NCBI GenBank assembly: GCA_000004985.1 | Contig: GG738891.1 | DNA length: 64,000 bases | DNA from: Naegleria gruberi | Taxonomy: Eukaryota | Strand: one strand, 5' to 3' | In this document: in pieces, positions 2,027 through 52,369 of the stretch | Layout of the letters: every line of letters begins with the position of its first letter | How positions within the stretch are numbered: the first letter of the stretch is position 1 | The notes under the pieces: generated by a model | The model's database searches: none | What the model was told of the DNA's origin: nothing | What the model saw: the letters and a program-made list of their open reading frames with translations, nothing else | Made by a program: the position numbers and the translations under genes

Positions 2027-2249
2027 AATATTACTTTTATATTTTTGTGATACTAGTAACTATATATCTACTATTACACTTAATAGTAGATATATAGTTA
2101 CTAACAATCAAATTGGTGATGAAGGATCCAAACATATAAGTGAAATGAAACGGTTGATATCACTTGATATTGGTAACAATTTAATTAGTGATGAAGGAGT
2201 TAAATATATCAGTGAAATGAAACAATTGATATCACAAGAAAATAGGTAA
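2027..2249 (+). CDS. Leucine-rich-repeat fragment of ribonuclease-inhibitor type; partial CDS resuming after the gap.
   Basis: Repeated L..L.L.NN.IGDEG.K.ISEMK..ISLDIGNNLISDEGVKYISEMKQLIS periodicity typical of RI-type LRRs. The 5' part is lost in the N-run. Confidence 0.4.
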
Positions 2250-3064: not shown

Positions 3065-4162
3065 TTATTGTTTTCTATCAACTCTTGAAAATTCAATTAA
3101 TTTCTTAATAGAATCAACATGTTCGTTCATGGTTTCGTCTCCAATTTCTTTCACTTCATTGGTGAAAAGGTTCAATAATTGATTGAATTTTGAATTCCAT
3201 CGTTCATGTTTAGTTTCCCCATTCTTCATTTCCATCAAATAACCCTTCACATTTTCAACAAATCTAACCAAAGCAATGGCCTTTCGAATTCCATTAGTTT
3301 CGTAATAATTTCCAAGTTGATTTGCATTGATTTTAACCTGCTTCTCCTCTCTGACCTTCTTTCCTTCAACAGTCTCATAAGAAAGTGTTAATTTCACATT
3401 CGATTCTCCTTTAAAATCATTCTTTGCTTTCAATCTTAATAAAACTATTCCTCCCTTAACTCCTCTTTCATCTAATTGACTAGCAGAACAAGTATCAACT
3501 TTCATAATCTCGCCAGTTGATTCTCCTGCCATATTTGTTCCAAAACATTTTTCAATTTCATAATTTTCACATTCCAAACTCAACTTGACATTGTAACAAA
3601 TCGGTGTTACAATATAATTGAAATCCTGATTCAAAATCTTTGTAAAATCCTCAGTTGATTTAACAGAGAAATAATTACAACCACGAACTTGAGTCAATTC
3701 TTCAACAATATCCGAATTGAAATCTAAACCAATTCCAATAAAAGTTGAAAAGATATTATACGGACCAGAGTTTGCATCTTTTGTAAGAATATCGAGAGTG
3801 TCAGTTCCACCCACATTTGGACAAGCATCTGTCAAGTAAATAATTCTATTAGAATTGGATAAATCAGACGAATCTAGAGTGGAAAATAAATCAATTCCTC
3901 TTTGCATGCCAGCTTCAAAATTTGTAGATCCCTTCTCTTTAATCTTTAGAACAGTTTCCTTGAGCGATTTCTTATCTAAATCCTGAACAATTGTTAATGG
4001 AAGAAAAGTTTCGGCCTTGTCATCGAATAAAACAATTCCCAATCTTTCAAATTCTCTCAAATTGTCAATTATTTCACAAATTACTTGATTGGCAACTTGC
4101 ATTTTGGTTTTTTCCTTGTTAGACATGGCAGATCCCATTGATCCACTAATATCCAATACAAT
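3065..4162 (-). CDS. von Willebrand factor type A (vWA) domain protein, exon 2.
   Basis: The exon begins IVLDISGSMG, the MIDAS DxSxS motif preceded by a hydrophobic beta-strand. The acceptor AG lies at 4164-4163 on the minus strand. A long ORF continues to the stop at 3065. Confidence 0.7.
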   Translation of the reverse strand: MVLDISGSMGSAMSNKEKTKMQVANQVICEIIDNLREFERLGIVLFDDKAETFLPLTIVQDLDKKSLKETVLKIKEKGSTNFEAGMQRGIDLFSTLDSSDLSNSNRIIYLTDACPNVGGTDTLDILTKDANSGPYNIFSTFIGIGLDFNSDIVEELTQVRGCNYFSVKSTEDFTKILNQDFNYIVTPICYNVKLSLECENYEIEKCFGTNMAGESTGEIMKVDTCSASQLDERGVKGGIVLLRLKAKNDFKGESNVKLTLSYETVEGKKVREEKQVKINANQLGNYYETNGIRKAIALVRFVENVKGYLMEMKNGETKHERWNSKFNQLLNLFTNEVKEIGDETMNEHVDSIKKLIEFSRVDRKQ

Positions 4163-4870: not shown

Positions 4871-5309
4871 AATGACGTTGCAGAATGATTATTAATTTTT
4901 GATAAATTGAAATTTTATTGAACTATTCATAATTCTTACAAGTTGGAAATCCTTCATCTTGAACCATTTCACACTGAGTGAAACTCAATGCTGTGAAAGA
5001 TTCACACCGTGTGAATTAATATTGTAAAAGATTTCACACCATCAAAGATGACAAGGAAATTGACAAGAGTTTCTTATAAAAACGTGAAATAAAAATTTGA
5101 ATTGATATGTCTTGTAAATGAATTGAAATGATGTAATATAATTGATAACTGATACGACTTACTAGTATGTTGAGGTATTTTTTTTGAAAAATAGTTTAAA
5201 CTGGTTGCAAAAATAGAAAGTGTTTATTTTAGAGATGAAGCCAAATATGGAAAGACATTTAATATAATGTAAAGGCCATTTTGTGAATTGGTTTGAAGTG
5301 AAAAGAGCC

Positions 5310-6244
5310 NNNNNNNNNNNNNNNNNNNNNNNNNNNNNNNNNNNNNNNNNNNNNNNNNNNNNNNNNNNNNNNNNNNNNNNNNNNNNNNNNNNNNNNNNNN
5401 NNNNNNNNNNNNNNNNNNNNNNNNNNNNNNNNNNNNNNNNNNNNNNNNNNNNNNNNNNNNNNNNNNNNNNNNNNNNNNNNNNNNNNNNNNNNNNNNNNNN
5501 NNNNNNNNNNNNNNNNNNNNNNNNNNNNNNNNNNNNNNNNNNNNNNNNNNNNNNNNNNNNNNNNNNNNNNNNNNNNNNNNNNNNNNNNNNNNNNNNNNNN
5601 NNNNNNNNNNNNNNNNNNNNNNNNNNNNNNNNNNNNNNNNNNNNNNNNNNNNNNNNNNNNNNNNNNNNNNNNNNNNNNNNNNNNNNNNNNNNNNNNNNNN
5701 NNNNNNNNNNNNNNNNNNNNNNNNNNNNNNNNNNNNNNNNNNNNNNNNNNNNNNNNNNNNNNNNNNNNNNNNNNNNNNNNNNNNNNNNNNNNNNNNNNNN
5801 NNNNNNNNNNNNNNNNNNNNNNNNNNNNNNNNNNNNNNNNNNNNNNNNNNNNNNNNNNNNNNNNNNNNNNNNNNNNNNNNNNNNNNNNNNNNNNNNNNNN
5901 NNNNNNNNNNNNNNNNNNNNNNNNNNNNNNNNNNNNNNNNNNNNNNNNNNNNNNNNNNNNNNNNNNNNNNNNNNNNNNNNNNNNNNNNNNNNNNNNNNNN
6001 NNNNNNNNNNNNNNNNNNNNNNNNNNNNNNNNNNNNNNNNNNNNNNNNNNNNNNNNNNNNNNNNNNNNNNNNNNNNNNNNNNNNNNNNNNNNNNNNNNNN
6101 NNNNNNNNNNNNNNNNNNNNNNNNNNNNNNNNNNNNNNNNNNNNNNNNNNNNNNNNNNNNNNNNNNNNNNNNNNNNNNNNNNNNNNNNNNNNNNNNNNNN
6201 NNNNNNNNNNNNNNNNNNNNNNNNNNNNNNNNNNNNNNNNNNNN
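5310..6244. other. Assembly gap (935 N) inside the transposon.
   Basis: Run of n characters. The true element length is unknown. Confidence 0.99.
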
Positions 6245-6256
6245 CCAACCAATAAG

Positions 6257-6922
6257 ATGTCAACTAGAAAAAACAAATCTAAGGCAGCTGCTCCAAAGAG
6301 GAAGAATCAATCTGATGAAGATGAATCAAGTACTGATACAGATAATGATTCTGAACCAAGCAAGAAAAAACAATTTAAACCATCTTCCAGTAAACAACTA
6401 GTGAAGACAGTGAAGAAGACCATGTCAGTTCATGATTCAGATAGTGATGAATCCACCACTGAAGATTCAGAAAATGGTACTGGTGACTCCACAGAATCTG
6501 TCTATTTTCAAGTTCGTCACGTTAATGGAAAACGGGAATATGTGATTGTTCCAGAGCATGTCGATTACATCTTTGATTTGATAGATAAGGACAAAGCTTT
6601 TCCAGAGTTCATCAATGCCATTATCCAATGTGAAAAGGTATTAACTGACCTCACAAAAAGGTTTGCTCATCTATTTTCAGGGCTTGCATTCAACACTACC
6701 GTAAATGGTATAACTTATTCAATTCCTCCAGACATTATCAAAATGCTTATTGGTAATGTGACTCAAAAACAGTGCTTGGAATTGTTAGCACATCATCACT
6801 TCAAGAAACCTATAGGAGAACTCACAACTGATCAAAGAACAGTATGTAGAAAGTTCTTTGAAGCAAGGGGATGGGATAAAGAAAGTGTTCGGAAGGCAAT
6901 CAATAGTTTGATCAAAGAATAA
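6257..6922 (+). CDS. Transposon-internal ORF of 221 aa: a basic N-terminus (KNKSKAAAPKRKNQ) and an acidic tract, then a globular C-terminal part. Possibly an accessory or DNA-binding protein of the element, or the C-terminal part of a larger ORF lost in the gap.
   Basis: The ORF starts immediately after the N-run and lies between the TIRs. No DDE/DDD motif is visible in the sequenced part. Confidence 0.35.
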   Translation: MSTRKNKSKAAAPKRKNQSDEDESSTDTDNDSEPSKKKQFKPSSSKQLVKTVKKTMSVHDSDSDESTTEDSENGTGDSTESVYFQVRHVNGKREYVIVPEHVDYIFDLIDKDKAFPEFINAIIQCEKVLTDLTKRFAHLFSGLAFNTTVNGITYSIPPDIIKMLIGNVTQKQCLELLAHHHFKKPIGELTTDQRTVCRKFFEARGWDKESVRKAINSLIKE

Positions 6923-7513: not shown

Positions 7514-7530
7514 AAAGAGCAGAAAAAAAT
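7514..7530. repeat. 17-bp direct repeat, copy 2. It ends in the ATG of the downstream peptidase gene.
   Basis: Identical 17-mer; the final AT plus the following G form the start codon at 7529-7531. Confidence 0.7.
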
Positions 7531-8851
7531 GGGTAAATTCGAAACTCTGAAAACTGAAAGCATTCACTCACTGCAAAGCAAGGGACTATTTAGATTCGTC
7601 ATCATCGTGATGATGAGTTTAATTATGTTTTGTTCGAATATTGTTATCGGAAAACAATATATTATTCGAAACGTGCCATACTTTTCACAACAAACAGAAT
7701 ATTCGTGTGGAGCTACCAGTTTACAGATGGCACTTTCGTATTTTGATGGAAATTTTCATAGACAAATGAAAGAAGAGTCATTGTTAAAGGAAACAGTTTC
7801 GTTTCGAATAATTTCTCAAGAATCAATTGTAGATGTTGCTAGAACTTCCAATCATACAGGAACATGTTCATTAGACGTCATTAGAAGTGCCAGATTCTCC
7901 ACCATTAGTTCAACACCAATTTCTCAATATTATTTACAATATCCGAAACAAGCTCCGATGAACGGATGGTTTGGAATTGAGAATTCCCATAATTTATTGA
8001 ACAAATCTTTGGATTCAATTTACTATTTTGGAGGATTAATGACCATATACTATCCAGAAAGAGGTTCTTATTTGAAATCTGAAAAATGTTCTGAAAAGAA
8101 GGGAGGAGAAGGAAATGTCAAATGTTGGGTAAAAGAAATGATTGAATCCTTTTTGAAATTTGACATTCCTGTCATTTGTTTAATGTTTTATGATTTGAAT
8201 GATAGTGAAGGACATTACCGATTGGCAGTTGGTTACGAAACTAAACTAGACGAAAGTGGAAATGAAATTCCAACACATATTATTATGTGGGATCCTTACA
8301 ATCGAGAAGGAAATCCTCCAATTTCTAATTTTACAATTTCAGAATTTTGTAATTTGTGGAATTATACAGAATTGAGATTTGAGAATACTTGTTATAGACC
8401 TTATTTTGGAGCTGTCATGTATCCATTGGATATTAAGGCAATGGTTAGTAGAGAGGGACATTTGATGGTTGAGTATGGACATCCGAAACACTTGGTTTCG
8501 TCTGATTTTGTTTCGAAACATGTGGAAAAGACACTAGTGATAGACAATGTGGTGGCCAAGATTCGTATTTATCAAACGATTCCTAATCAAGAAGATATTT
8601 TGAAAGAAGTGGAAAGTGTTGATTTGCAAATGAATCCTTCCAGATTGAATTTTGGACAAAATCTTTCATTTTCTTGGAAATTACCATCAAATCTCTTATT
8701 GGAAAAGAATATTCGAATCAAAATTGGAATTTATGGATTAGTTTGTGATAAAACCTTAACTTGGCTCTATGAACCAAACACGGACAAGTTTAGTCAATCG
8801 TACAAATATTGCGATCAAGTTGGAGGAACAATTTTCATTAAAACAGATTAA
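7529..8851 (+). CDS. Membrane-anchored peptidase-C39-like (papain-fold) domain protein.
   Basis: N-terminal hydrophobic anchor (LFRFVIIVMMSLIMFCSNIVIG). The motif VPYFSQQTEYSCGATSLQMALSYFDG matches the C39-like Q...CG..SL.M.L.Y.G catalytic-Cys region, and EGHYRLAVGYE matches the His motif. Single 440-aa ORF. Confidence 0.6.
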   Translation: MGKFETLKTESIHSLQSKGLFRFVIIVMMSLIMFCSNIVIGKQYIIRNVPYFSQQTEYSCGATSLQMALSYFDGNFHRQMKEESLLKETVSFRIISQESIVDVARTSNHTGTCSLDVIRSARFSTISSTPISQYYLQYPKQAPMNGWFGIENSHNLLNKSLDSIYYFGGLMTIYYPERGSYLKSEKCSEKKGGEGNVKCWVKEMIESFLKFDIPVICLMFYDLNDSEGHYRLAVGYETKLDESGNEIPTHIIMWDPYNREGNPPISNFTISEFCNLWNYTELRFENTCYRPYFGAVMYPLDIKAMVSREGHLMVEYGHPKHLVSSDFVSKHVEKTLVIDNVVAKIRIYQTIPNQEDILKEVESVDLQMNPSRLNFGQNLSFSWKLPSNLLLEKNIRIKIGIYGLVCDKTLTWLYEPNTDKFSQSYKYCDQVGGTIFIKTD

Positions 8852-9481: not shown

Positions 9482-10178
9482 ACACATGTTGATCTTTGTT
9501 GACAGAGAACGTCTCAAAGTTGTCAGTATCAAAAACTACGTCAATGCCTACTTATTCATCAAGAGTGGTGGCTTGAATCACATCAATGCTGATTATCAAG
9601 GTCCACTCACTTCCTCAGTTGACCAAAGAACTCACATGAACAATACAGATCCAGGAGAACCATTCAATTTCTCTCAATTAACCAAAAGACAATTATCCAA
9701 CACTACCCAACCACTCTCATTCTTTGCTCAAAACATGTTCCAACCAATTCCTCGTCCAAAAACCATCTACGGTTACACTCAATCCATGAAAGCAGCTAAT
9801 GGAATGTATCTCTGCTCTGAAAATGGAAGAGTCATTGCGAATCGTCCAGTAGTTGGTCCATGGGAGAATTTCTTCTTTCACTCAGATACAGAATGGTCCA
9901 GTGATTGGAATTCTTATTGTGCATTGAGAACTCATTGGAATACTCTGTTGTGTTGTGAGATGGATAATTCAATTATTGATAATAGAACTGTTGCTGGACC
10001 GTGGGAGAGGTTTACTGTGGAGATTCCTCCTGGGGCTGGTGGTGGCATTAGTTGTTACAAGTCGTGGACTGGACATTATTTGACAGCTGATGCTTCTGGA
10101 AATGTTTCGTTCAGTGCAACTAGTATTGGTCCAAATGAAACATGGATTTGTAAAGTACTTAATGTTCTATATCTTTAA
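9482..10178 (+). CDS. Exon 3, carrying fascin-like beta-trefoil repeats.
   Basis: Acceptor AG at 9480-9481 restores AG+A=Arg. Three repeats of G.YL..E..G.V.AN....GPWE.F (GMYLCSENGRVIANRPVVGPWENFFF, NTLLCCEMDNSIIDNRTVAGPWERFTV and GHYLTADASGNVSFSATSIGPNETW). Confidence 0.55.
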
Positions 10179-10271
10179 AAAGTTTAATTGTAATGTAAAT
10201 ATAAATGATTTATTTTTCTTGAATGTAAACTATTTCTGTAATCACGTTTCGTTTTCTTTCATTCCAAAAAA

Positions 10272-11870
10272 ATGTCAAAAGAATGTGCAGTGGCTGATCG
10301 CGAATATTATGAAGAATCTCAACCACCAACAGTGCTAAATAATCAAAATAATGCAAAGAAACTAGACGAAAGCTTTCCACCAGTTGAATATCACGAAAAT
10401 TCATTAAATTCTTTAACACCCGATTACATTTACCTTGACGAGAACAATATCGAAAAGGATTTAATCTGTTCTCTCTGCTACCATCCCTTCATTGATCCAA
10501 TTATGCACTCAACATGTGAAAATATGTTCTGCTCCTCTTGTGTTAAAAAAGTTATTGGAAACAAGTGTCCCCTATGTAAAGGAGAGAATTTCACATCAAA
10601 TTGCTCATCTGTTCCTCGATTCGTCACCAACAAGTTGCTACAATTGAAAGTGGAATGTTCCATGTGTAAGGGAGCAGTTGCAAGAGGTGATTTGAAAGAT
10701 CATCAGGAAAAATATTGTCCTCTTCATGATGCCTATCAACAGGTGACTAAATTGAAGGAGAAACTGGAAGAGGAATGCAAGGAGAAGAAGGATGAGTTGG
10801 GAAGAAAGTTGGAAGAATTATCTGAAAGTTTAAATCTCGAATGGAGTCAAAAGAAGGATGAGTTGACCAGAGAATTTGAATCGAAAGAGGAGGAACTGCA
10901 TGAACGAATTGAATTATTTGAGAATCAAATATTGGCAAGGGAAAAACTTGAGAATGTGAACAAACCTATTCATTTAAATGTTGGTGGGACTATTCTTACA
11001 GTTTCTTTGGGAACATTTATTCATAATGAAAGAGAATCAGATAATTTATTTAAAAAAATGTTCACAGGTGAATATCCATGCTATCAAACACCTTCAAAAC
11101 AGTTTGAAGAGCCTGTGTATTATGTTGATTGTGATCCAATGATTTTCAGATACATCTTAGGATGGTTACAATATGGAAAGAACTCAATTGGGCCAAGTTT
11201 GAGTTTATCTGACATTCTTCTAGCTTGTAAGAAGTTTAGTTTAGATAATCTAGCTGTTAAATTAACCAAATCTGAATACTTTTATGAGATTTCTCAACTA
11301 GAATTCTTCAAAATGAAGAATAGCTCTCCATCCATAATTTTAAACAAATTTGACATGACTAATTTAATGTTAAGAGGTATGGATCTACAAAAATCCTCAA
11401 TTTCACTTTCACTTTTCAGGGGAATGGATTTGAGTGGAGTGAATTTTTCCAATTCTAATTTGAATGGATGTAACTTTAGTGGTTGTATCTTGGATGGAAC
11501 TAATTTTTCAAAATCCAACTTGTCAAATGCAAACATTCAAATAAGTTCATCTTGTAATTTCACTAACTGTGATTTTTCTGGTTGCTTGATTGACAAGTCA
11601 AATTTGAACAATCTTTCATTTTCAGGATCCAGTTTTAAAGAAACCAAGTTTGTGGAATTGTGTAATTTGATTGAGAATGTGACACTGAGCAAGTGCACAA
11701 TTTACAAAGTTTACTTAAATGGAAAGACGTTTAATAGAGTTGACTTTAGTGAAACATCTTTTAAAGATTGCAAGTTTGCAGATTGTACCTTCAAGAACTG
11801 TAACTTTTCAGAGACTCAATGGAAGACAAGCAAAGTAGAGCGATGTAATTTTCTGGAATGCATTCAGTAA
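10272..11870 (+). CDS. RING/TRAF-type zinc finger, coiled coil, BTB/POZ (T1/KCTD-like) and pentapeptide-repeat protein, with KCTD9-like architecture.
   Basis: The start is set by the track ORF, which opens MSKECAV with ATG+TCA at 10272-10277; the written context is aaaaaaATGTCA. Motifs: C.LC....DP.....C...FC..C......KCPLC; a KLKEKLEEE coiled coil; IHLNVGGTILTVSLGTF...VYYVDCDPMIFRYILGWLQYG (BTB/T1); then pentapeptide-like repeats (NLSNANIQISSSCNFTNCDFSGCLIDKSNLNNLSFSGSSF...). Confidence 0.6.
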   Translation: MSKECAVADREYYEESQPPTVLNNQNNAKKLDESFPPVEYHENSLNSLTPDYIYLDENNIEKDLICSLCYHPFIDPIMHSTCENMFCSSCVKKVIGNKCPLCKGENFTSNCSSVPRFVTNKLLQLKVECSMCKGAVARGDLKDHQEKYCPLHDAYQQVTKLKEKLEEECKEKKDELGRKLEELSESLNLEWSQKKDELTREFESKEEELHERIELFENQILAREKLENVNKPIHLNVGGTILTVSLGTFIHNERESDNLFKKMFTGEYPCYQTPSKQFEEPVYYVDCDPMIFRYILGWLQYGKNSIGPSLSLSDILLACKKFSLDNLAVKLTKSEYFYEISQLEFFKMKNSSPSIILNKFDMTNLMLRGMDLQKSSISLSLFRGMDLSGVNFSNSNLNGCNFSGCILDGTNFSKSNLSNANIQISSSCNFTNCDFSGCLIDKSNLNNLSFSGSSFKETKFVELCNLIENVTLSKCTIYKVYLNGKTFNRVDFSETSFKDCKFADCTFKNCNFSETQWKTSKVERCNFLECIQ

Positions 11871-12460
11871 ATTGGCAAATGCAACTTCAAACAAGTTAAC
11901 CAATCTGATTGCCAATTTAAAAATTGTGCTCCAGAAGTTGTTGGACAATTCAAATCCATCACCATTACAGACAGCTCTATTTGGAAAGATATTTGTTCTA
12001 GTATTGGATTGCTTGGATTAAAACTTATTTATCGTGGAACAGTTCATGGTTTTAGTGCTTCTTCCTTCCACTCCAATTGCGATAATCAAGGACCAACCTT
12101 GACCATCATTAAATCTGAAAATGATCAAATATTTGGAGGATTTACCATTAATAATTGGAAATCGATAGAATCAAAACAGGAGCAAGATAAAAATGCATTT
12201 CTTTTCAAAATTGAAAATAGAAAATTTAACAGATTCAATATCAAACCAGAGAGGATAGATTTCGCCACATATAGCAGATTCAACAGAATGGAATTTCCAT
12301 TGACACGAATTGTAATGTGAATAATAATTCATATGCTGACTTTGGAAATACTTATCAGCTCCCTAGTGGAATGATTCGTGGAGAGGTCTCGAAAAGATAT
12401 TTGGCAGAAAGTGAGAAATTCAAAGTTGAAGAAATTGAGGTTTTCAAGTTGCTTTTAAAT
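11871..12460 (+). pseudogene. In-frame continuation encoding more pentapeptide repeats and a TLDc domain. It is separated from the upstream CDS by a single TAA and carries a +1 frameshift near 12318. Either a disrupted C-terminal part of the same gene or a sequencing error.
   Basis: Same frame as 10272..11870. LIYRGTVHGFSASSFHSNCDNQGPTLTIIKSENDQIFGGFTINNW matches the TLDc core (LLYR.S.DGFS...FH..CD.KGPT...IK...G..FGG.T...W). After the frameshift, NCNVNNNSYADFGNTYQ...FKVEEIEVF matches the TLDc C-terminus. Confidence 0.4.
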
Positions 12461-12820
12461 TGAAATCTGAATCACTTAAGGGAAATCTTTAAATTTTGAT
12501 GTGGTCTTCTGGAAAATATATTCTGGCTTTCATTTTTATTTTTAATAACCTAAATTTAGAAAACTCATTTCTATTATTAGACTCTTGTAATAAATATAGA
12601 TCTCTAAAAATTCTAAAAATAATTATAATATTTTTAGAATCAAAAAACTAAAAATATATTTTCTATTAATATTATGTTAAAAATAATCACCACACTCAAC
12701 AACAAATCATCATGGGAATAATATCTTGCGGAGTGTTTCACGACCCAATTTTTTAAACAATAAACACATCATCTCAACACACAATAAAAATCACAAGATT
12801 TTTCGGAATAAGTTATGATT

Positions 12821-13325: not shown

Positions 13326-16300
13326 TTATTCAAATACCAATCTCAAATCAATTTGCACTGCAGATGGAATTTCTTCTTCCTTCTTCTTCTTTCTGAATAA
13401 TTTTCTAACAGATTCCGATGAAAAATTGGACAAGACCGATATGAAGGAATGTCTAGAATTTGTTGTTGAGTTTCCATCATCATCATCACCTCCTCCTCTG
13501 CCTACGCCTTTGCCTCCTCTCACAACAGTCACTGCTCCTTCTGAATTATGATCATCACCATCATCATTATCATGACTAATTGTGATGTTGTTGCTATGAT
13601 TTGAATGTGTATCCTCCTCTCCCCTTGTTGAAGGAGTTTCTCTTGGAGTTGGTGGAAGATAAATTGTTTCTCCCTCCACAATAGGATGATCTTCATTATA
13701 TATTATTGTTGTTGTACTCGTATTATTAATAGTATTATTTAAATTAATGATAGGAACAACAGGATGAGGATGAGGATTAAAAGGCTCGATATGAAGATGA
13801 GGTTTTTCATCATCACCATTATCACTTTCTACATCGACATCAATTGCTGTTGTCATTGAAAGTGCTCTTCTTCTTCTATTCCGATGATGACGAAGAATGC
13901 TCGATTTACCACAACAATAACAACACCACCAACAGCAACAACAAAACTGCAGGCAAGGAATGGCTAGACAACATAATTCTCCATAGAAACAATAGTAGGC
14001 ATAGCAACCAATTGTTACAGAGCAACACAAAACCATAGCACCAACCACCACAGCAATGATAATGCCTATTAACATACTCTGATCATCTATATAAATCTTC
14101 TTTTGGACAATGAAGAGATTGAGTGTGGAGGAGACAAGATTGGTCATGTTGAAAGTGACAGAACATTTGCAGGTTGCCATTGTTGAATTGATAATTGTAA
14201 CTATGCAATTTGGATTATCTTCGATGGATAGTGTACTGATTGAGATTGAGGCACATGAATATGATGTATTGACCTCTTTGAAGAACAATTGACCCAAATT
14301 ACTGTCATCTTGAGTAGTAGTAGTATTCTCTAGCAGTGGAATATGGAATTCCAAGTCAATTATGGAAGATGATTTCAATAAGGCAACATCCAAATCACCA
14401 AAACCAAAAGCAATAATTTTAGATTGGAGAGAGGACTTTCTTCTAACTTTCTCAGAGAGAGTTTCTACTTTTGAGGCTAAATAATCACCAATGGAGAATA
14501 TATCATCCACCACAAGGAATGCTTGAAGGAATGGTTTGCTGGAATGTGTGGCCTTAATAGTATTATTTAACTGTACTTTGACACTTGTCAATGTTGAAGG
14601 TTCTATCAACAGCTGATGATTCGAATAGTCGTATAACCACACCAGTTCCATCACTCTTCTATAGAATGCTGCCTTCTTAAAGACTTTTGTTCTTGTCTTT
14701 GGTTGACTTCTGGCTTCTAGATGGGAGGTAAACTTGAGAGTTGTAAATAATTGTTGTGCATTTGAAGCTTGTTTGGTAAAGAATCGTTTCTCAAGGATGA
14801 ATTGGAAGGCAGAATCAATGACAGAGTCCAAACAAAAGTCAACACCCACTGGAAGTTTCAAGCTTTCATCAGCAATCACCTTAACAAGATATTTGACAAG
14901 TTGGGATAGAGCTTCTGATACTGTATTTGTATCAAGATGTTTGAAGTTATACAGAATCGAGTCTACAGTAAATGCAGCTATGGAAATGAGTTGATTATCC
15001 ATCATTATTTCTGTACCATTTGCTAACATTCTCAATAGTTGTAGATTCTTGTTTTGATATTCTGCAAAATCCTTGATGGTATTTTCACAAGCAACCCCAA
15101 CAAAACCTTCCCTACACATACAGGTATCCTTTTTCAAAATTCCACCATTCTTACATGTGAGACTTCTTGTCAATGACCTAGTATTTTCATATATTGAAAT
15201 TGGTTCAATTTTTGTGATGGCTCTATTCAGAAGGGCAGTAGAAGTTCTAGATATGGCTGCTGATTGATAGAGTGATCCCAATAGCGACTCTTCTTTTGCC
15301 TGTTTAATCCATTGTTGAGCTAAAACTTGTACTTGTGAAAAGGTTGAATATGAGCGAGTTTGAATGCTTACATTCATTGATTCTATAGTTGATGCTTGTG
15401 TGGCTGTATTGATTACCTCAAAGAAACATGTAACTGTCTCACCAATGAATGCTGTAGGAAGTTGTTTCGAATAGCCAACATCAATATTATGCATGTAAAT
15501 TTTTACACCAGACCTATCATCAATGAAACCATATCTGTAATCTAAATGATCTTCTTCACTTTTACAATTCATGCAAATGAATTCAAATTCTGTTTCTACT
15601 GCAAAACCATTCAAAGGAGTAATGGTACAATAACACATTGGAGGAGGGGAGGCAACACTGAAACTGTACTGAATCAATGAAGCAACATTTGCATTTGGAT
15701 CATAAGCTGACAGAGTAATAATATTATTGGAGCCAGCATTTAACAAACTTGGATCAATATTAATGTAATCTGAACTTGTGGAACCAACAATAACATTATT
15801 AACAATTACCGTATAATTGGTAATTAAAGATGTTCCAGGAATGAGAGAGGTCTGTAATGTTAGAGTATCACTAACAAGAAAGTATTCCTTCTTTGGGTAA
15901 ACATTAATAATGTTAATTATTGGTGGAATATACGTAAAATGGATAGTAGTCGATTTATGAATACTTCTTCCATCAGATTTAGTAACTTTAAGATCTAGTT
16001 CTAGTGATAGTGGAGGAACGGGGAAAAGAGCTGCATCAATTTTGAAGTTCGTTGACTTTTCTGAGGATAGTACTGAGAGAAACTCTAATAAGAGCTCATT
16101 GACGTTATTGTCCAAGCATGTCCATTCCCACACTTCTGTAGAGTATGCGTTGTAAACCATTTCAGGATCTGTATAATCTACATTAATTATGGTATAATTG
16201 GGTTGTGCATCAAAAGTAATTAAGTTCAAGTATAGATCTGGAGGTTTGGTGATTAAGGTTACAACTGAAACATCTTTGATGTTAGGATTGGATGGATAGT

Positions 16301-19300
16301 AGACAGATACTTGGAATTTATAGATCTGGTAACCAAATGTTTCTAAAGAGACGTAGAGGTCAGAGTATTTATCCATACTGTATCTGATTTTTGGTCCACT
16401 CAATTGAGTCCATTCAATGATTGAATTTTCTGATTTGCATGAAGATTCTGACACTATTTTCTTGATGGTAATAGGAAATTGAGTAGTTACTTTTTCAATA
16501 GTTGTTTGTGGAACATATAATGCTGGAAGAGGGCTTTCTGCTTTTGAAAATATGGAAGAATATACAGTTGAGCTATTTACAATATTTCCCACCACAAGAG
16601 AAACTAAATATTTTCCTTGTGGAAGGGTTGAATCTAGCTTAATTAATGGAGTATTGGGGAAATTGAATGGAATAATTTGGAACACATGGTCTGTCTCATT
16701 GAACAAGGTCCAGTAATAGTCAAGTGGTGTATTATTTGGAGATATACTGAGCGAGCCATCAATGATAATCTCATCACAGGAGCTATAGAATTCTGAGAGT
16801 AGATTTATGGATGCTGTTGGAGCGATAACTTTTTCATTTTCACACCAAATGCCATAATATCCATTCTCACATTGGCATTGATTGTAATCTATGCATACAC
16901 CTCTTCCAGAACAAACATTAGAATCATTCGAAAGTAGAGAATCACATCGTGTCAACTCACAATTCACACCAACATGATTACTGGTGCATGTACAATTATC
17001 AAAGCTTGAACAATTACCACGATTTGAACACACCAAAGGATTGGTATTATTCAGACCGAAACAAGAGTATTGTTCACAACTTTCACCGAAATAGCCGTCA
17101 GAGCATTGGCAAGTATCCAAATCAATGCAATTACCCTTTCCAGAGCAAACAGTTTCTTTTTCACTTGATGAAATGTTGAAACATGTGGTCAACTCACAAT
17201 TAGCTCCATGATACTTTTCTCCACATGTACAATTATTGTAGGATGAGCAAAATCCTCTACCAGAACAAACCTTTGAATCGGCATGCTCTGTTCCATTACA
17301 ATCAAAATAATTACATAGATCTCCATAAGTTCCTAATTGACAAGAGCACTTATTCACATCAATACATTGGCCATTTCCAGAACACACTGTCGAGTTGTCT
17401 TTTTCAATACCAAAGCATGAAAATTCTTTACATTCCACACCAGTATATCCTGAACGACATTTACAATCATCAAAATCAACACATTCACCTCTTCCTGAAC
17501 AAACATTTTGAGTTTCATTGCTCAAAACACCAAAACAACTTGTCACTGAACAATCTAATCCGAAATAATGTGATACACATTCGCACTCATCTGTTTCAGT
17601 ACAACTTCCGTGCCCAGAGCAAACTCTGGAATCAGTTCTATTCATTCCATAACAAGAATAATATTGGCAGTTGTCTCCGTAATATCCTTCAGAACAATTG
17701 CATTGATTGAATCGATAGCAATTTCCTTTTCCAGAGCAAACTTGAGGATTTGATGAAGATACATTGAAACACACATAAGATTCACATTCTTCTCCATGAT
17801 ATCCATGCTCACATGAGCAATTATTAGGAGAAACGCATTGACCATGACCTGAACAAGCCAATGGTTCTGAATGTTGCACATTAAAACATGAGAAATTGTC
17901 ACATTCCTTTCCATAGTAACCAGATACACATGTGCAATTATCAAAATCAACACATTCACCTCTTCCAGAACAAACACTTGAAGAATTGGAAAGTTTGGAG
18001 AAGCAAGTAGTGATGGAACAGTTCAAATCCATATAGTTCTCATCACATTGGCATTGATCCAAGCTGGAACAAGTTCCTCTTCCAGAACAAACATTGGAAT
18101 CTGAAGAATTGAATCCAAAACATGTGTAAAGTTCACAAAATTCACCAAAATATCCATATTCACATTGGCAATTATTAAATGTTTCACATGAACCATGCTT
18201 GGAACAAACTGAGCTATTGGAAGATGAAATTCCATCACAAGTAGTTTCTTGACAGAATGAACCAAAGTAATGTTCTACACATTCGCATGTGTCATGTTGC
18301 TTGCATTCACCACGTCCATTACAAACTCTTGAATCATTACTTAATAATCCCTCACAGGATGTCACTTGACATTTATCACCCCACCAATTGTTTGAGCAGT
18401 GACATGTATCGGGTCCAACACATATTCCATTTCCAGAACATGATATGTTTAAAGTTTTCGATTCATTAAAACATGAAAATTCGTCACAATTTGATCCAAA
18501 ATAATCAATTTCACATTGACATAAATTAAAATCAATGCATTGACCATGTGAGGAACAAACTAGATTGGTTTGATTCGATGGGATGGAAGCACAGGTGGTG
18601 AGTTGACATTCTTCTCCGAAATAGTTTGGTAGACAAAAGCATTCGTCAAGTTTCGAACAATTTCCTCTTCCAGAACAAACACTTTTGGTTTCAGTATGAT
18701 TAATTCCAAAGCAAGCATAATTTTCACAATCCATGCCTGAATAACCATTCTCACATTCGCAAATTTCAGATTTTAAGCATTTTCCGTGTTTGGAACAAAC
18801 TGAACTATTTAAATGCTCAATTCCATTACAATAAAATTCTTCACAATTTGATCCAAAATAACCAGTATTACAAGTGCAATTGTTAAAATCATTACAGTTA
18901 CCATTTTTGGTACAAACAGTCGAGTCATTTGACATTATTCCAAAACAAGAGGTTACGTCACATGCCAATCCAAAGTAATTTTCTTGACATTCACAATTTC
19001 CAAAATCTGAACAATTTCCTCTTCCTGAACAAACTAACACATCATTTTGAGTAATATTGTTACATGTGTAATATTGACATTCATCACCAAAATATCCAAA
19101 TTTACAAGAACAAGTATTGTAATCAATACATTTTCCTTTTCCAGAACAAGCTCGTGAACTGGAAGATATTTCAGCACCACAACTTGTCAATTGACAATAA
19201 TCTCCAAAATAGTGAGCTTGACATTTACAATTATTGTAAGAAGTACAATTTCCTTTTTGGGAACAAACAACAGAAGAATTGGTATTGTTAATGCCATTAC

Positions 19301-22300
19301 AAGTATAATATTGGCATTCTTCTCCGAAATATCCATCATTACAACGACATGAATTGTAATCAATACATTGGCCGTTAGAGGAACAAGCAGTTTCGTTTTG
19401 GTTGGAATATTCGAAACATTCGAATATCTCACAATTGAAGCCCCTGTAATTAAGCGAGCAGTTACATTGATTGTAATCAATGCAATTACCCTTTGATGAG
19501 CAGACTGTTGAATTTAGAGATGATACTGAGCTACATGTGGTCAACTCACAATTTTTTCCAAAATAATTTTCTTCACAAGTACAATTATCGAAACTTGAGC
19601 ATTTTCCTCGAGAAGAGCAAACTTTAAAATCGACATTTGATATTCCATGACATGAAAAATATTGACATTCGTCTCCAGAATATTCATCATTTTCACAAGC
19701 GCAATTATTAAAGGAAGTACATTTGCCGAAACCAGAACAAACTGAAGAGTTATAAGATTCAATTCCATTACAAGTGGTAATTTCACAACTCAATCCAAAA
19801 TAATTCATTTCACATTGACAGGTGTCAAAATCAACACAAGCTCCATAACCAGTACAAACCAAACTGTCATTACTCAATATTCCATTACAACTTGTCACTT
19901 GACACATTGATCCAAACATATTTTCCTTACATTCACAAGTATTTACATCAAGACATTTGCCACGACCAGAACATGACAAGTTGGAGAATTTGGAAATTTC
20001 AAAACAATTGAAATTTTCACATGAATCTCCATAATAATCAGCTGTGCAATTACAAGTATTGTAATCTATACATGTTCCCTTTGATGAGCAAACAGAACTT
20101 TCATTGGATTGAATATTATTACAAGTGGTCAATTCGCAATTATTTCCAAAATAGGAATCAATACAGGTGCAATTATCAAAACTCGAACATTTTCCTTTTG
20201 AAGAACAAACAGATTCCAAAGTATTGTTCACATTGAAACAAGTATAAAATTGACAATCATTTCCAAAGTATCCTTCGTCACATTCGCAATTCTCAAAACT
20301 TTTACAATGACCTCTTGATGAGCAAACTGAGGAATTGTAATGTTCAATGCCATTACAGTTAAATAATTCACAATTGGTTCCATAATATCCTTCATTGCAT
20401 TCGCAGAAATCAAAATCTGTGCAATTTCCTTTTCCAGAACAAACATTAGTTTCGTTTGAAAGTGTTGAATTACAACTGGTCAATTGACATTCATCTCCTA
20501 AATAATTAAGGAAACATGAACAATTATTTGTTGAATAGCATTCTCCACGTGAATGACAAACAGATGAGTTGATATTCAAAATGTCAAAACATTTGAATTC
20601 AGAACAATCAGAACCAAATGAATTTTCAAAACATTGACAGGTGTCAAATTGTGAACAAACTCCATTTCCAGAACATGTCAAATCTGTTACATTGGATGGA
20701 ACTCCAAAACATACAGTAACTTGGCAGAATTGACCAAAATAATTTTCAGTGCAATTACAACTATCTGTTTCAATACAATTACCACGTCCTGAACAAACAA
20801 TTGATTCATTACTCAATGTTCCATTACATTTGTATAATGAACAGTCAGCTCCGTAAGCATCTGGTTGACATTGACAGGAATTCACATCAGAACATTTGCC
20901 TCTGCCAGAACAAACTAATTGTGATTGATTTGAAGGAATGGAAAAACAATCAGTCACTTGACAATAATCTCCATAATATCCATCTCTGCATGAACATTGA
21001 TTTGGTGATAGACATTCTCCTCTTCCAGAACAAGTAATTGTTTCATTACTAAAAATGGAATTACATATTGTAACTGAACAATTCAGTCCAAAGTAATTAA
21101 AATCACATTCACACAAATCTGTTTCTGAACAAATACCATGTCCAGAACAAACCAAAGATTCACTATTATTCAAACCAAAGCAAGTGTGGAATTGACAATT
21201 CTCTCCATAATATCCCTCAGAACAATTACAATGATTGTAAGAAGAACAATCACCTTTTCCAGAACAAACACTGTTATTGGTCATATCAAGTCCAAAACAA
21301 GATGTTCTCTCACAAAATTCACCATAGTATCCATCCGTACAATTACAAATATCTTTTGCAACACAATTTCCATTGGAATTACAAACACTTGTCAAATTAC
21401 CAAAAGTTCCATTACATTTGGATATGGAACAATCCTCACCAAATGCATCTGGAAGACAAATACATGAATCTATATCTGAACAATTGCCTCTTCCTGAACA
21501 AACTGTAGAGTCCAAGTTGAGTGTGCCAAGACATGAGAATTGAGAACAAGTTATTCCTGAATAACCTGGTTTACAAGTACAATTATTGAAAGAAGAACAT
21601 AAACCGTGAGAGGAGCATACTTGAGTGAAATTGGAAACAATATTTTCACAAGTCGTGAGCTGGCAGAATGGACCAAAATAATTTGCCGTGCAATTACAGA
21701 TATCTGGATTAATACACGAGCCACTTCCGCTACAAACAAGGGAATCATTACTTGGAATACCATTGCACAATGTAAATTCACAATTTGTTCCATAAATTTG
21801 AGAATTATTGCAATGACAATTGTTAACATCTGAACAAACGCCCCTTGAGGAACAAACTGATGAGGAATTTCTGTTAAATCCAAAGCAATCATATTCTTGA
21901 CAGTCAGATCCATAGTATCCTTCCTCACATTCACAATTATTGTATTGAGTACAATTACCGCGACCTGAACAAACAATTGTGGAATTTGAAACGATATTTG
22001 AACACGTTGTGAACTGACACCATTCACCAAAGTAATGTTTGGAACAGTTGCAAACTTTGAAATCGGTACAAATACCATTCTTTGAACAGACTAATGAATC
22101 ATTTGCAGTAATATTGTTACAATATGGAATTTCACAATTCAATCCAGTATAACCATATTTGGAATCACAATTACAATTATTATATGAATCACAACTTCCA
22201 TGTCTACTACAAACACGTTGATCATTAGATCCAAAACCATAACATGTTGTAAAATCACAAAAAGTTCCAGCATAATTCAAGTCACATTCACAAACGTCCA

Positions 22301-25300
22301 TGTCAACACATTTTCCAAAATTATTACAAACAAGAGATGAGTTTGAAGAGATCGAATCACAAGTAGTAAATTCACAATTCGATCCAAAATATCCTTCTCT
22401 ACATTCACATCTATTGTACTCTGAACAGATTCCTCGGCCACTACATACAGACCTATTATTCGAATCCACTCGGTCACAAGTTGTAAGTTCACACCAATCA
22501 CCGAAATAATTCTGAGAGCAGTTACAATAATTTGGACCATAGCAAGTACCCCTGGAATTACAAACTCTTGAATCATTGCTCATCGTTCCATTACAATATG
22601 TCAATTCGCATTCTAATCCAAAACTAAACTCATTACACTCACACTTATTGTAATCAACACATTTGCCATTTTTTGAACAAGTTTCATTGGAATTAAAAAC
22701 TCCAAAACATGAAAATTCGCTGCAATTAAACCCAAAGTATCCATAACTGCATTCACAGGTATCGTATGCAGTACATTTACCCTTTCCATTACAAACTTGA
22801 GAATGTTGTGAATCAACTCCATAACAACTGGTCAACTCACAAAAGGAGCCCCAATAGTACGGTTCTATACAAGAGCACACATCAGGATTAGAACAGTTGC
22901 CTCTACCAACATCAGTACACTTTCCAATTAGTCCATTACATATTGGAATATCACAATCTGAGCCACCATAACCTAAAGTCTCATTACATGTGCAATTATT
23001 GAAATTTTCACACAATCCTCTCAAATTACAAACCAATGGTGAAGTGTTTTCAATGAGATTACATGTTGTAAATTGACACCACTCTCCATAATGACCCTCT
23101 TCACATGAACAAACATCGGTTTTTGTGCATTTTCCATGACCATTACAAACAAGAGTTTCATTTCCCAAAGTGCCATTACAATACAATACTGAACAATCAA
23201 CTCCAAAAGTGTCTGGTCTACAAGAGCAGGTATTGAAATCTGTACAATTTCCATTTCCAGAACAAACAGTTGGAGAGTTTGGAAGCAAATCAAAACATGT
23301 GAATAAATTGCAGTCCTCTCTGACATATGGTTGTAAAGGGTCAAAGGTTGATGGTTGACTGAATTTTGCTTGTTTCAAAATTAAATAACCACCTTCTGTA
23401 CAGGTTGACCAAATAGCTCCTTGAATATTATCTGAAACTATGAAATCGTGTCCATATCTTGCAATTACAGTTCCATGAACATTTCCAGAAAAGGTATTTC
23501 CATGAATTGCTGGATTGTAAACCCAATTTGCATTTCCAGAGCTGAAATAATAAGTCAACCAAAAAACATTTCTATAGGTAGCACATTTCAGATAGGTAAA
23601 ATCGGCGCCAAAATAGTGTACGAAAGGAAGCTTAAAGACCACTGGTTCAATTCCTACAATTGTAAACTTTTGGCCATTGATTGTCCATCCATTTTCCATG
23701 CAATAGACACCTCCTCTGTTGATGATAATGTTTCTACCCATGTCAGTGTCTGGATTTTTTATCATGTAATCACAAGGAAGGGCCAGAAGCTCCTGCATCT
23801 TATTAGAAACTTGTTGAACTAATTCTAAACCGTAATTTTCTGAACTGTTTGTAACTATAGCACTTCCATTGGCAACATAGGGATAAACTGGATCTGGATA
23901 AACATAATTTGGAGGATTAATGACGAATGAAGGTATTGCAATACTAGCAGAAAGTGGCGCGTTATCCAAACTATTCTTAACTAAAACTATTGGAATGTTG
24001 GAGATTAATTTATAACCAGCAAATATATCATTTTCGCACAAGGTTCCAGAAAAGCCAGCACTACAAGTACATTGATCAAATGCATAGCAACGTCCTCTTC
24101 CAGAACAAACTGAACTATTCGTATTTTCAATGCCGAAACATGAAGTAAATTGGCAGAAAGTTCCATAATAATTTTGAGAACAGGAGCAATTATTTGGAGC
24201 AAAACAAGCACCTCTTCCAGGTGCAGTACAAATTCCTACCAAATTATTACAAATAGGAATATCACAATTAGGTCCGCCAAATCCCATTTCTGTCCTACAT
24301 GTACAATTATCGAAATAGTCACAAATTCCACTACTGTTACAAACAAGAGGTGAATATTTGGAAACTCCTGCACATGTTGTAAACTCACAAAAAGTTCCAT
24401 TGTGTCCAAAGTCACATTGACATGTATCCTTGGCCACACATCGTCCGTGTCCACTACAAACATTTGAAACATTACTAAGAATTCCATTACAAAAGGAAAG
24501 TGAGCATTGAGGACCATAACTATCTGAATTACATATACAGGTGTCAAAATCTACACATTTACCCCTTCCAGAACATGTCATATTTGAAGTTGACACAATG
24601 CCATAACAATTCACACGAGAACAGAAAGTTCCATCATAATACGAATCTTGTGGATTAAATGTTATAGGTGCTGACAGTTTTACATCTTTAAAATTGAGAT
24701 TTCCTTTAGAATTTGGTGAATGAATCATCAAAGATCCTTGTATGTCACCTGTAACTGTCAAATCAGCATTGCTATTTGCGATCATTGTTCCTTGAACAGT
24801 TCCAGAAATAGTTAAATTAGAGTTTGCATCAGTGGATAGGAAGAGTAAATTTCTATAAGTTGCGCACTCAAGATATGAAACCTTGGATCCAATATAATTA
24901 AAATACGGAGCTTTAAAGACAACTTGTTCAGTACCTATTATGGTTAAAGACATTTTGTTAATTGTCCATCCTTGCTTCAAGCAATAAACCATTCCACCTC
25001 TAATAGTGATGCTAGTAGTCAATTCCAAGTCTGGATTAGTAACATTAACTGTACATGGTAATGCTATTAATTCAGTTACTTTTTTTGTTAATTCTTGAGA
25101 AAGAATTTGTCCGCTAGATGTTGTAGTATTCTTAATGACTGCATCTCCATTCGAAACATATTGGAATTGATACTTTTCTGTAACCATTAGTGGAATTGCA
25201 ATACTGGCCAATAGATATGAATTGGATCTTGAGTTTTTTACCAAATTTAGTTTCTTATTGGTGATGAGTTTGTATCCAGCAAAAAGATCATTTTGACAGT

Positions 25301-41698: not shown

Positions 41699-41746
41699 CT
41701 TTACAATAAATGTTAACTATTTAAAAACTACTAAAAGGTAACTTAC

Positions 41747-43720: not shown

Positions 43721-43796
43721 CTAATTCACAATTATTTGCAAATCAAATTTCAATTACAATATTTCTTCTTCCAATTTAATGGATGTAACTACTTAC

Positions 43797-52292: not shown

Positions 52293-52369
52293 CTCCAATT
52301 TTTAAATTCCGATAGAATCAAAATTCTTCAATCAAATCACAATTAAATAGTAGTAATAAATATGAGGTT

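Follow-up and report, generated by a model that had tools for sequence, protein, structure and literature searches.

Probable loss by decay of a C-terminal TLDc domain from a RING-BTB-pentapeptide gene of Naegleria gruberi

The analysed window is a stretch of 64,000 nucleotides of Naegleria gruberi nuclear DNA. It is draft sequence, with gaps of Ns at 1977-2026 and 5310-6244, 4-8 kb upstream of the gene studied here; the region 10200-12600 holds no ambiguous bases. The gene is NAEGRDRAFT_71501 (XP_002673308.1), annotated on the plus strand, like all features below, as a single-exon ORF of 532 aa plus TAA at 10272..11870. A protein search returned an N. gruberi entry (P0001) with 100% identity to this ORF, and the ORF map agrees with the initial annotation in placing its end at the TAA at 11868-11870. 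With five paralogs as tblastn queries we found no further copies of the family in the window.

The ORF encodes a RING-zinc finger-coiled coil-BTB-pentapeptide protein. A RING finger and an adjoining C2HC zinc finger of the TRAF/LNX/RAG1 type occupy aa 60-153 (10449..10730), as indicated by Pfam (zf-RING_6, 2.4e-6, and zf-RING_5), by a family sub-profile and by structure matches to LNX2 (5din, aa 50-150), BARD1 and RAG1 (1rmd, aa 60-131). They are followed by a charged stretch, probably a coiled coil, at aa 154-228 (10731-10955), N-terminal to a T1/KCTD-type BTB domain at aa 229-333 (10956..11270). The latter was identified by BTB_2 (PF02214; E 1.5e-4, 22.5 bits against a gathering cutoff of 21.4), by the family sub-profile and by the structures of KCTD9, KCTD1 and KCTD15 (5bxh, 5bxb, 8pnm). 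The segment aa 361-532 (11352..11867) is a pentapeptide-repeat region forming a right-handed beta-helix, matched by Pentapeptide (PF00805, E 1.8e-21) and Pentapeptide_4 (PF13599, E 3.5e-20); solved pentapeptide-repeat proteins match aa 361-454 and 483-530.

Homology does not end with the ORF. In the column of the TAA the paralogs have I, S, S, L, S, L and Q, and each of the codons TCA, TTA and CAA is a single substitution away from TAA. The tblastn alignments of five paralogs continue unbroken across 11868-11870, and the frame of the ORF stays open for 149 further codons, until a TGA at 12318-12320. The segment 11871..12020 reads in this frame as the last degenerate pentapeptide repeats (IGKCNFKQVNQSDCQFKNC) and a linker into a TLDc domain, and aligns with the paralog sequence FNNCSFKQV...VNFSSCSFNDC. 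Taken alone, the repeats behind the stop give a weak match (E 0.32); the Pentapeptide_4 match, however, bridges the stop position, covering residues 4-70 of a tested translation in which the stop is residue 43. The N-terminal two thirds of the TLDc remnant follow in the same frame at 12021..12257 (family-profile nodes 10-89, E 2.8e-31). The initial annotation had already proposed that pentapeptide-like repeats and a TLDc core continue in this frame, and we came to the same result.

The C-terminal third of the remnant (NGISIDTNCNVNNNSYADFGNTYQLP...YLAESEKFKVEEIEVFKLLLN) lies at 12287..12463 in a frame offset by +2, covers nodes 104-159 (E 7.3e-18) and is aligned in tblastn frame 2 by the C-termini of all five paralogs. 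It reads ...EIEVFKLLLN up to the ancestral stop TGA at 12461-63, so the earlier reading of EIEVF at the TLDc C-terminus stands. When the two frames are conceptually joined, the 197-aa tail matches Pfam TLD over profile positions 28-169 of 170 (E 8.3e-23), with a score of 81.6 bits against a gathering cutoff of 24.5 that is obtained from this repaired two-frame translation only.

The change of frame was previously described as a +1 shift near 12318, which is wrong in both sign and place: the TGA found there is simply the first stop of the old frame past the true site. In the tblastn alignments of the five paralogs and in the family profile, homology leaves the ORF frame (frame 0; tblastn frame 3) after 12257-12266 and resumes at 12287-12293 with an offset of +2 (register of 10274; tblastn frame 2). 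This defines a lesion zone at 12258..12286 with a frame change of -1/+2, in which about 5-6 codons are absent compared with all paralogs. Frame 0 ends at node 89 and frame 2 starts at node 104, leaving at most 9 residues to cover nodes 90-103, and the unaligned DNA measures 26 or 41 nt (both 3n+2) where the paralogs have 14 or 23 residues. As the frame change coincides with the missing codons, the lesion resembles a deletion rather than a base-calling slip and would most simply be explained by the loss of 16-19 nt (3k+1).

The open reading and the TLDc coding signature of the relic are far beyond chance. There are no stops in 196 codons, compared with an average of 15.6 in shuffled sequences, and none of 20,000 shuffles was free of stops. 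The GC content of 0.33 is coding-like, while the intergenic stretch that comes next has 0.26. At the same time, conservation is relaxed: the relic retains 37 of 47 family-invariant columns and has replaced the other 10, whereas intact members lose 21 of 365 pooled columns (∼6%; leave-one-out; Fisher p = 0.001). Among the losses are two in the RDGF motif (R to V, D to H) and one in YLAGS (G to E). TLDc identity between the window copy and the N. gruberi paralogs is 47-49%, compared with 57-58% among those paralogs. A complete, uninterrupted TLDc domain with its invariant residues is thus absent, as what is left lies behind a stop, lacks most of nodes 90-103 and has the 10 replacements. When invariant-residue loss upstream and downstream of the stop is contrasted directly in the window copy itself, the difference fails to reach significance (p = 0.19). 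Lineage-specific divergence could account for part of the relaxation, because this copy is a divergent paralog (identity ≤41%) and conservation of its pentapeptide region, too, is lower than in the paralogs. The nearest solved structures to the relic are the TLDc domain of Skywalker/TBC1D24 (6r82) and mEAK-7 on the V-ATPase (7unf/7u4t/7u8o).

Other readings of the DNA at the relic were discarded. There is no ATG in its frame before 12288 that could start a separate TLDc gene, and the 'ORFs' with TTG and GTG starts that are listed at 12009 and 12317 arise artefactually from a bacterial start-codon rule. The minus strand beneath the relic holds ORFs of only 46-53 aa. A bacterial promoter and terminator scan was set aside as irrelevant in a eukaryote.

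The initial annotation held that BTB, pentapeptide repeats and TLDc do not form a standard architecture. We find BTB_2, pentapeptide and TLDc together in at least nine clusters at 50% identity, mainly from Naegleria and relatives, and within the Heterolobosea the architecture RING-ZnF-coiled coil-BTB(T1)-pentapeptide-TLDc recurs. In N. gruberi, four or more intact paralogs (P0002, P0003, P0005 and P0076) carry the fusion in one protein, as do relatives from N. fowleri (P0004), N. lovaniensis (P0006) and environmental sequences (P0007/P0008); separate genes, the other outcome considered earlier, are not what the available, more distant relatives (paralogs and other Naegleria species) have. In both members checked in DNA, P0004 (3300 nt) and P0007 (1896 nt), the fusion is encoded by one unbroken, intronless ORF. 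The intact N. gruberi paralogs are NAEGRDRAFT_48585 (XP_002677869.1, 710 aa), NAEGRDRAFT_80657 (685 aa, named 'TLDc domain-containing protein' in UniProt), NAEGRDRAFT_82104 (927 aa) and NAEGRDRAFT_71251 (542 aa), and the intact relatives in other species are FDP41_001763 of N. fowleri (1099 aa) and C9374_011707 of N. lovaniensis (929 aa). The repaired window sequence is homologous to intact members over its whole length (E 1e-138 to 1e-112), and the intact Naegleria members share its domain order and 38-41% identity over 65-94% of it. The window copy differs from them in that its TLDc is severed by the TAA, is broken by a frame-shifting deletion and is not translated in the same ORF. Its pentapeptide array is also shorter than that of the members with 927-1099 aa. 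Relatives that have no TLDc exist too (P0011, P0021 and P0198/P0220), so the shortened architecture is viable.

Upstream of the stop the picture is one of conservation. The window copy keeps 63 of 71 invariant columns (89%), no different from the intact members (range 87-97%; p = 0.36), and every Cys/His ligand column of the RING and the zinc finger is retained in the family alignment, as is the BTB core. RING and BTB identities lie within the range of the paralogs, whereas conservation of the pentapeptide region is lower than in these. We also simulated drift of the upstream ORF, calibrating the divergence to d ≈ 0.05-0.07 on the excess loss of invariant residues in the relic. The chance of 532 codons staying open was P ≤ 0.002 at this divergence and P = 0.11 at d = 0.02; over d = 0.03-0.07 it was P ≤ 0.002-0.03, given the 33% GC of the genome. 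The survival of the ORF suggests that the truncated RING-BTB-pentapeptide protein is probably still made and in use.

Our preferred explanation, which we consider probable, is a real and moderately old loss of the TLDc domain by a premature stop and a frame-breaking deletion, with the truncated protein most likely still being made; both lesions would then be correctly assembled. The ancestral form of this amoeba-specific, heterolobosean family would have been one ORF with RING, C2HC zinc finger, coiled coil, T1-type BTB, pentapeptide beta-helix and C-terminal TLDc. A single-base change would have created the TAA at codon 533, within the last pentapeptide repeats, and a deletion of about 16-19 nt in the TLDc core would have removed 5-6 codons and broken the frame; the two lesions could have arisen in either order. 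The 590 nt from 11871 to 12460 would since have gone untranslated and would be decaying slowly, as a relic that probably belongs to the 3' UTR. The 532 codons upstream, kept open and conserved, would most likely still encode a shortened KCTD9-like RING-BTB-pentapeptide protein, which its domains suggest to be an oligomeric scaffold of the ubiquitin-ligase type minus the TLDc module. An inactivated C-terminal TLDc extension was among the possibilities raised by the initial annotation, and it is favoured by the uninterrupted fusion in the paralogs, the alignment through the TAA, the loss of invariant residues and the deletion of several codons at the frameshift.

There are several other possible reasons for the two lesions. 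The entire locus may be dead and the 532-codon ORF merely not yet disabled, which we regard as unlikely. The gene has lost a domain that all of its closest relatives keep and its pentapeptide region has diverged more than theirs, but so long an open frame is improbable under drift at this GC content, the upstream invariant columns are kept at the rate of intact genes with all ligands and the BTB core in place, and relatives without TLDc exist. It is less likely still that the lesions are artefacts of a draft Sanger assembly and that the real gene is an intact fusion ORF of 720-730 aa. The scaffold does have gaps nearby, an intact fusion is present in all relatives available, whether paralogs or from other Naegleria species, and the locus is represented by one assembly only, as searches of metagenome contigs and proteins found no independent sequence: a look-up of encoding contigs gave no record for P0001 or P0003, metagenome contigs scanned for the exact pattern at the TAA gave no match, and a protein search with the relic returned distant TLDc proteins (identity ≤43%) and no second allele or strain. 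The case for both lesions being real is therefore an indirect one. However, two independent errors within 420 bp would be needed, one of them a stop-making substitution, and neither site has ambiguous bases or a homopolymer run. The sequencing error proposed earlier is disfavoured further as a deficit of 5-6 codons compared with all relatives is beyond the reach of a one-base miscall, and as the remnant, even when repaired, carries independent radical substitutions at invariant positions. Naegleria is described as chiefly a heterozygous diploid and N. gruberi has been reported to show heterozygosity (PMC9928731), so that a damaged haplotype might have been assembled while the other NEG-M haplotype still encodes the full fusion. 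We think this very unlikely, since the many differences of the relic beyond the two lesions suggest a long history and a very old allelic divergence would be required.

It is highly improbable that both lesions are bypassed at the RNA level, whether through introns that are cryptic or newly arisen or through programmed readthrough with frameshifting. Two GT-AG segments do exist, at 11867-11974 (108 nt, GTAAAT...ACAG) and 12312-12358 (47 nt, GTAATG...TCAG), and their joint removal would give an in-frame product of 678 aa. Introns are short in Naegleria, with a mean of 203 bp in N. gruberi and a median of 80 bp in N. lovaniensis, and mapping in N. fowleri used a 30-bp intron minimum (PMC8296547, PMC6125883). 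On the other hand, chance alone supplies 37 in-frame GT-AG pairs that span the TAA, and both candidate introns align in frame with coding sequence of the paralogs. Splicing of the second would delete the conserved block FG..DI.I..CN.N..SYS.FG..Y.LP and leave the out-of-frame RMEFPLTRI. The two members with DNA examined are intronless, and the TAA is also where the public gene model ends. Since the candidates consist of coding sequence that is homologous and in frame, and since GT-AG pairs of this kind arise by chance in large numbers, we reject introns as the principal reading; that two newborn short introns ('intronization' around the premature stop) yield a 678-aa protein with a remodelled TLDc-like tail is very improbable. 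Stop-codon readthrough, also suggested earlier, fares no better: the stop context is TAA-A, the frameshift would have to be bypassed as well, inspection of 12255-12290 revealed no X_XXY_YYZ heptamer, and two different recoding events would be required. TAA is not reassigned as a sense codon, given that the adjoining ORF of 6474 codons and other long ORFs are free of in-frame TAA, TAG and TGA. The RNA editing reported for N. gruberi is confined to mitochondrial C-to-U changes (PMC4758236), and C-to-U editing is unable to turn UAA into a sense codon. We read the locus as a case of ordinary gene decay, not of recoding.

Three modest uses follow, and nothing here should surprise a specialist. The annotation can be corrected, as NAEGRDRAFT_71501 is neither a stand-alone KCTD9-like gene nor a recoding case but a family member cut short, whose 3' region contains a TLDc relic that has not been annotated. 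The recurrent heterolobosean architecture is documented; a search of the available literature found no paper describing TLDc with pentapeptide repeats and BTB, or TLDc in Naegleria. Finally, the locus is a natural 'TLDc-minus' allele that could serve as a comparison for the role of TLDc in putative ubiquitin-ligase scaffolds. As in other partial (unitary) pseudogenisation, a multidomain ORF has been truncated by a nonsense codon and the downstream relic has gained an indel and radical substitutions. This is a textbook case, notable only for the legibility of the relic.

KCTD9 of animals and FIP2 of plants have a T1-type BTB followed by pentapeptide repeats and are described as Cul3-associated. 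NAEGRDRAFT_71501 resembles them in that its BTB_2 domain directly precedes the pentapeptide beta-helix. It is unlike KCTD9 in having an N-terminal RING, zinc finger and coiled coil and, ancestrally, a C-terminal TLDc, and it has no Pfam match at E ≤ 0.1 to the KHA domain that is N-terminal in animal KCTD9. Residues 46-150 align with the RING-ZnF modules of LNX2/LNX1 (5din, 5h7r), with RAG1 (1rmd) and with the BARD1 RING. Unlike modules of the LNX, RAG1 and TRAF type, however, the family as a whole has Asn at the canonical His ligand position (C-x-N-x2-C), hence E3 activity is not assured. The remnant is clearly a TLDc domain by Pfam, like those of TBC1D24/Skywalker, mEAK-7 (TLDC1), OXR1 and NCOA7. 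In contrast to these proteins the domain is untranslated in the window copy and its partners are RING, BTB and pentapeptide repeats instead of TBC, LysM/GRAM or EF-hand-like domains. In the intact paralogs the TLDc would supply a surface for binding partners; the known class of TLDc partner is the V-ATPase, and its binding by the Naegleria family is no more than an analogy. The modules are shuffled further in relatives, whose architectures include RING-BTB-TLDc, BTB-TLDc, RING-BTB-pentapeptide-RGS and tandem TLDc arrays.

The ORF at 10272..11870 (+) is 100% identical to NAEGRDRAFT_71501 (XP_002673308.1, UniProt D2VR88), a 532-aa predicted protein of N. gruberi, and both the ORF list and the DNA place its end at the TAA at 11868-11870, as the initial annotation had stated. 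Pfam reported a RING finger, BTB_2 and strong pentapeptide repeats, and sequence matches in the PDB assigned a RING and zinc finger (ZnF) of the LNX/RAG1/BARD1 type to aa 46-150, a KCTD-type BTB to aa 223-329 and pentapeptide beta-helices to aa 361-530. The locus is best read as a case of ordinary partial pseudogenisation, in which one paralog of a lineage-specific family has lost its C-terminal domain and the relic is still legible. The window has a GC content of 33%, dense ORFs mostly without introns and two N gaps. This agrees with the draft nuclear assembly of strain NEG-M, for which 41 Mb, 33% GC, 1.7 exons per gene and a mean intron of 203 bp are given (PMC8296547).

Past the TAA the frame of the ORF runs on without a stop for 149 codons, up to a TGA at 12318-20. 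One Pentapeptide_4 match spans the TAA position and the conceptually repaired tail matches Pfam TLD at 8.3e-23 (profile positions 28-169 of 170), so that the in-frame continuation, the further repeats and the TLDc core proposed earlier are all present. There are no stops in the 196 codons of the relic (11871-12460), compared to a mean of 15.6 after shuffling and not one zero-stop sequence in 20,000 shuffles. The GC content of the relic is 0.33, as in coding DNA, and that of the adjacent intergenic DNA 0.26. The TLDc-coding tail is thus real and far above chance expectation.

The suggested +1 shift near 12318 was wrong in both sign and site, as 12318 is only the first stop in the old frame. A profile made from seven intact relatives places one part of the domain at 12021-12257 in the frame of the ORF (nodes 10-89, E 2.8e-31) and the other at 12287-12454 in the +2 frame (nodes 104-159, E 7e-18). 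Together with tblastn this puts a -1/+2 frame change between 12258 and 12286. Each of five intact paralogs gave one unbroken alignment across the TAA in the frame of the ORF, numbered 3 by tblastn (for the N. gruberi protein P0003, aa 18-641 against 10398-12266), and a second one in the +2 frame, numbered 2, from 12287 or 12293 to 12448. The 26 or 41 nt left unaligned between the frames (both 3n+2) lie opposite 14 or 23 residues of the paralogs, so that the locus lacks 5-6 codons plus one base, which is the signature of one deletion of ∼16-19 nt.

With the repaired, frame-joined sequence as query we found relatives (E-values 1e-138 to 1e-70), each with its pentapeptide repeats and TLDc in a single chain. 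They are three N. gruberi paralogs (927, 710 and 685 aa), two environmental proteins, FDP41_001763 of N. fowleri (1099 aa) and C9374_011707 of N. lovaniensis (929 aa). The family alignment shows a common plan of RING, C2HC zinc finger, coiled coil, BTB, pentapeptide array of variable length and a TLDc ending in ...YLAGS.F.V.EIEV(F/Y). The N. fowleri gene (3300 nt) and one environmental gene (1896 nt) are each a single unbroken ORF. Orthologs with separate genes, named earlier as part of what would refute the proposal, were not found among these paralogs and proteins of other Naegleria species, where the TLDc is fused. Nor is the architecture a non-standard one as had been supposed: when domain scans were run on top of an exhaustive profile search, BTB_2, pentapeptide repeats and TLD occurred together in at least nine clusters at 50% identity, including a further N. 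gruberi gene, NAEGRDRAFT_71251. The architecture is thus a recurrent one in Heterolobosea. Modules are also shuffled into RING-BTB-TLDc (N. gruberi, Willaertia magna), BTB-TLDc, RING-BTB-pentapeptide-RGS and long tandem TLDc arrays. Many proteins in the profile search have 3-8 TLDc domains (e.g. P0074, P0077, P0086, P0087 and P0089), and P0089 and some others start with a RING-ZnF of the NAEGRDRAFT_71501-family type; we know of no such tandem array among characterised TLDc proteins. The RING-BTB-pentapeptide-TLDc architecture is unmentioned in any paper within the searchable library.

An inactivated TLDc extension, a sequencing error and readthrough had all been considered for the tail, and of these the first is the best supported. 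After repair the relic retains 37 of the 47 columns in which the seven intact relatives never vary. Among the residues lost are the R (to V) and D (to H) of LLYRGSRDGF and the G (to E) of YLAGS, together with the FG and DI motifs on either side of the deletion. In a leave-one-out comparison intact members lost 21/365, and the excess in the relic is significant (Fisher p=0.001). Upstream of the TAA 63/71 invariant columns are kept, on par with intact members (p=0.36), whereas the upstream versus downstream contrast inside the window alone is not significant (p=0.19). Identity of the TLDc to the N. gruberi paralogs is ∼10 points under the paralog-paralog level, a drop absent from the RING-ZnF and BTB regions. 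Caveats on this argument from relaxed conservation, besides the p=0.19 just given, are that conservation of the pentapeptide region, too, falls below that of the paralogs and that the window copy is a distant paralog. A sequencing or assembly error behind both lesions appears quite improbable, as the frame is broken by the loss of several codons and not by a one-base slip, 10/47 invariant residues are still lost after repair, and the identity deficit is confined to the TLDc when compared with RING-ZnF and BTB. These comparisons favour both lesions being real. No second copy of the locus was found in searches of the encoding contigs, of metagenome contigs around the TAA and of proteins with the relic as query. 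Heterozygosity has been reported for N. gruberi (PMC9928731), and an intact second allele is a possible but unlikely alternative.

Several ways of bypassing the lesions were rejected. Readthrough plus frameshifting would require two distinct kinds of recoding; the TAA is followed by A, and 12255-12290 holds no slippery heptamer. Against TAA as a sense codon stands the neighbouring 6474-codon ORF, which has no in-frame stop. Cryptic introns at 11867-11974 and 12312-12358 would remove both lesions and give an in-frame product of 678 aa, with lengths inside the Naegleria range. However, chance alone supplies 37 in-frame GT-AG pairs spanning the TAA, both segments are homologous, in frame, to coding sequence of the paralogs, and the second splice would remove the best-conserved TLDc block. 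The C-to-U editing known in N. gruberi is mitochondrial (PMC4758236) and irrelevant to a nuclear UAA.

For the upstream ORF we calibrated neutral divergence on the excess invariant-residue loss of the relic (d ∼0.05-0.07 substitutions/site). At this drift the simulated probability of 532 codons staying stop-free is P≤0.002, rising to P=0.03 at d=0.03 and P=0.11 at d=0.02. As every RING and ZnF ligand and the BTB core are also kept, and TLDc-less relatives exist (P0011, P0021, P0198/P0220), we somewhat favour the view that a shortened RING-BTB-pentapeptide protein has been retained; that the whole gene, including the 532-codon ORF, is dead is unlikely.

By domain analogy, intact members may be oligomeric scaffolds of the ubiquitin-ligase type. 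The RING/ZnF would contact an E2, the T1 BTB would oligomerise and possibly bind Cul3 as in KCTD9, the pentapeptide beta-helix could be a rigid spacer or interaction surface, and the TLDc a terminal partner-binding module. Among solved structures, the TLDc domains nearest to the relic are those of Skywalker/TBC1D24 and of mEAK-7 on the V-ATPase, which makes the V-ATPase an obvious candidate partner. In NAEGRDRAFT_71501 the TLDc function would be gone, with the rest of the protein acting without it. The canonical RING pattern is C-x-H-x2-C. The whole family has Asn at this His position (CGNTFC / CENMFC), therefore ligase activity is not assured, and the zinc-ligand arrangement may be altered. 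A conserved His lies 3-4 residues upstream of the motif (SHST). The relic is of minor value for annotation, and so is the locus as a naturally TLDc-less member of this uncharacterised family of heterolobosean proteins.

About 860 bp from the 3' side of the relic, on the opposite strand, the 6474-codon ORF (13326-32750 (-), 19.4 kb) is unbroken and likely among the largest intronless ORFs of the genome. It consists almost wholly of teneurin-type EGF repeats (EGF_TEN, EGF_2, EGF_Teneurin, E down to 1e-159). Its C-terminus holds a Cys-rich, hydrophobic stretch that appears to span the membrane, along with a charged tail. Directly upstream of NAEGRDRAFT_71501 a 230-aa ORF (9486-10178 (+)) has a weak fascin/FRG1-type beta-trefoil match (PF06268, E 9e-5, slightly under the gathering score). 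The 440-aa ORF at 7529-8851 (+) matches a Peptidase_C39-like family near its N-terminus (PF13529, E 1.4e-8, aa 48-87). Most members of this family are bacterial, so the ORF may represent a cysteine peptidase domain that Naegleria gained by horizontal transfer or that evolves fast. Within 35363-63675, seven ORFs (393-716 aa) had no Pfam match at E≤1e-3 and appear to be lineage-specific genes: 35363-36655(-), 41743-42927(-), 43793-45127(-), 46704-47921(+), 50850-52298(-), 56352-57965(+) and 61525-63675(+). The N runs at 1977-2026 (50 bases) and 5310-6244 (935 bases) are scaffold gaps of the draft assembly, and the larger one explains both an apparent GC dip to 0.20 and the overlapping ORFs called on either strand at 5224-6401, which are spurious. 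The ORF at 3065-4156(-) encodes a VWA domain. Adjoining the 50-N gap, a 72-nt tandem repeat at 2102-2235 (+) within ORF 1686-2249 (1.9 copies, 83% match) encodes a 24-residue unit resembling an RNI-type leucine-rich repeat (NNQISDEGAKHISEMKQLISLDIG).
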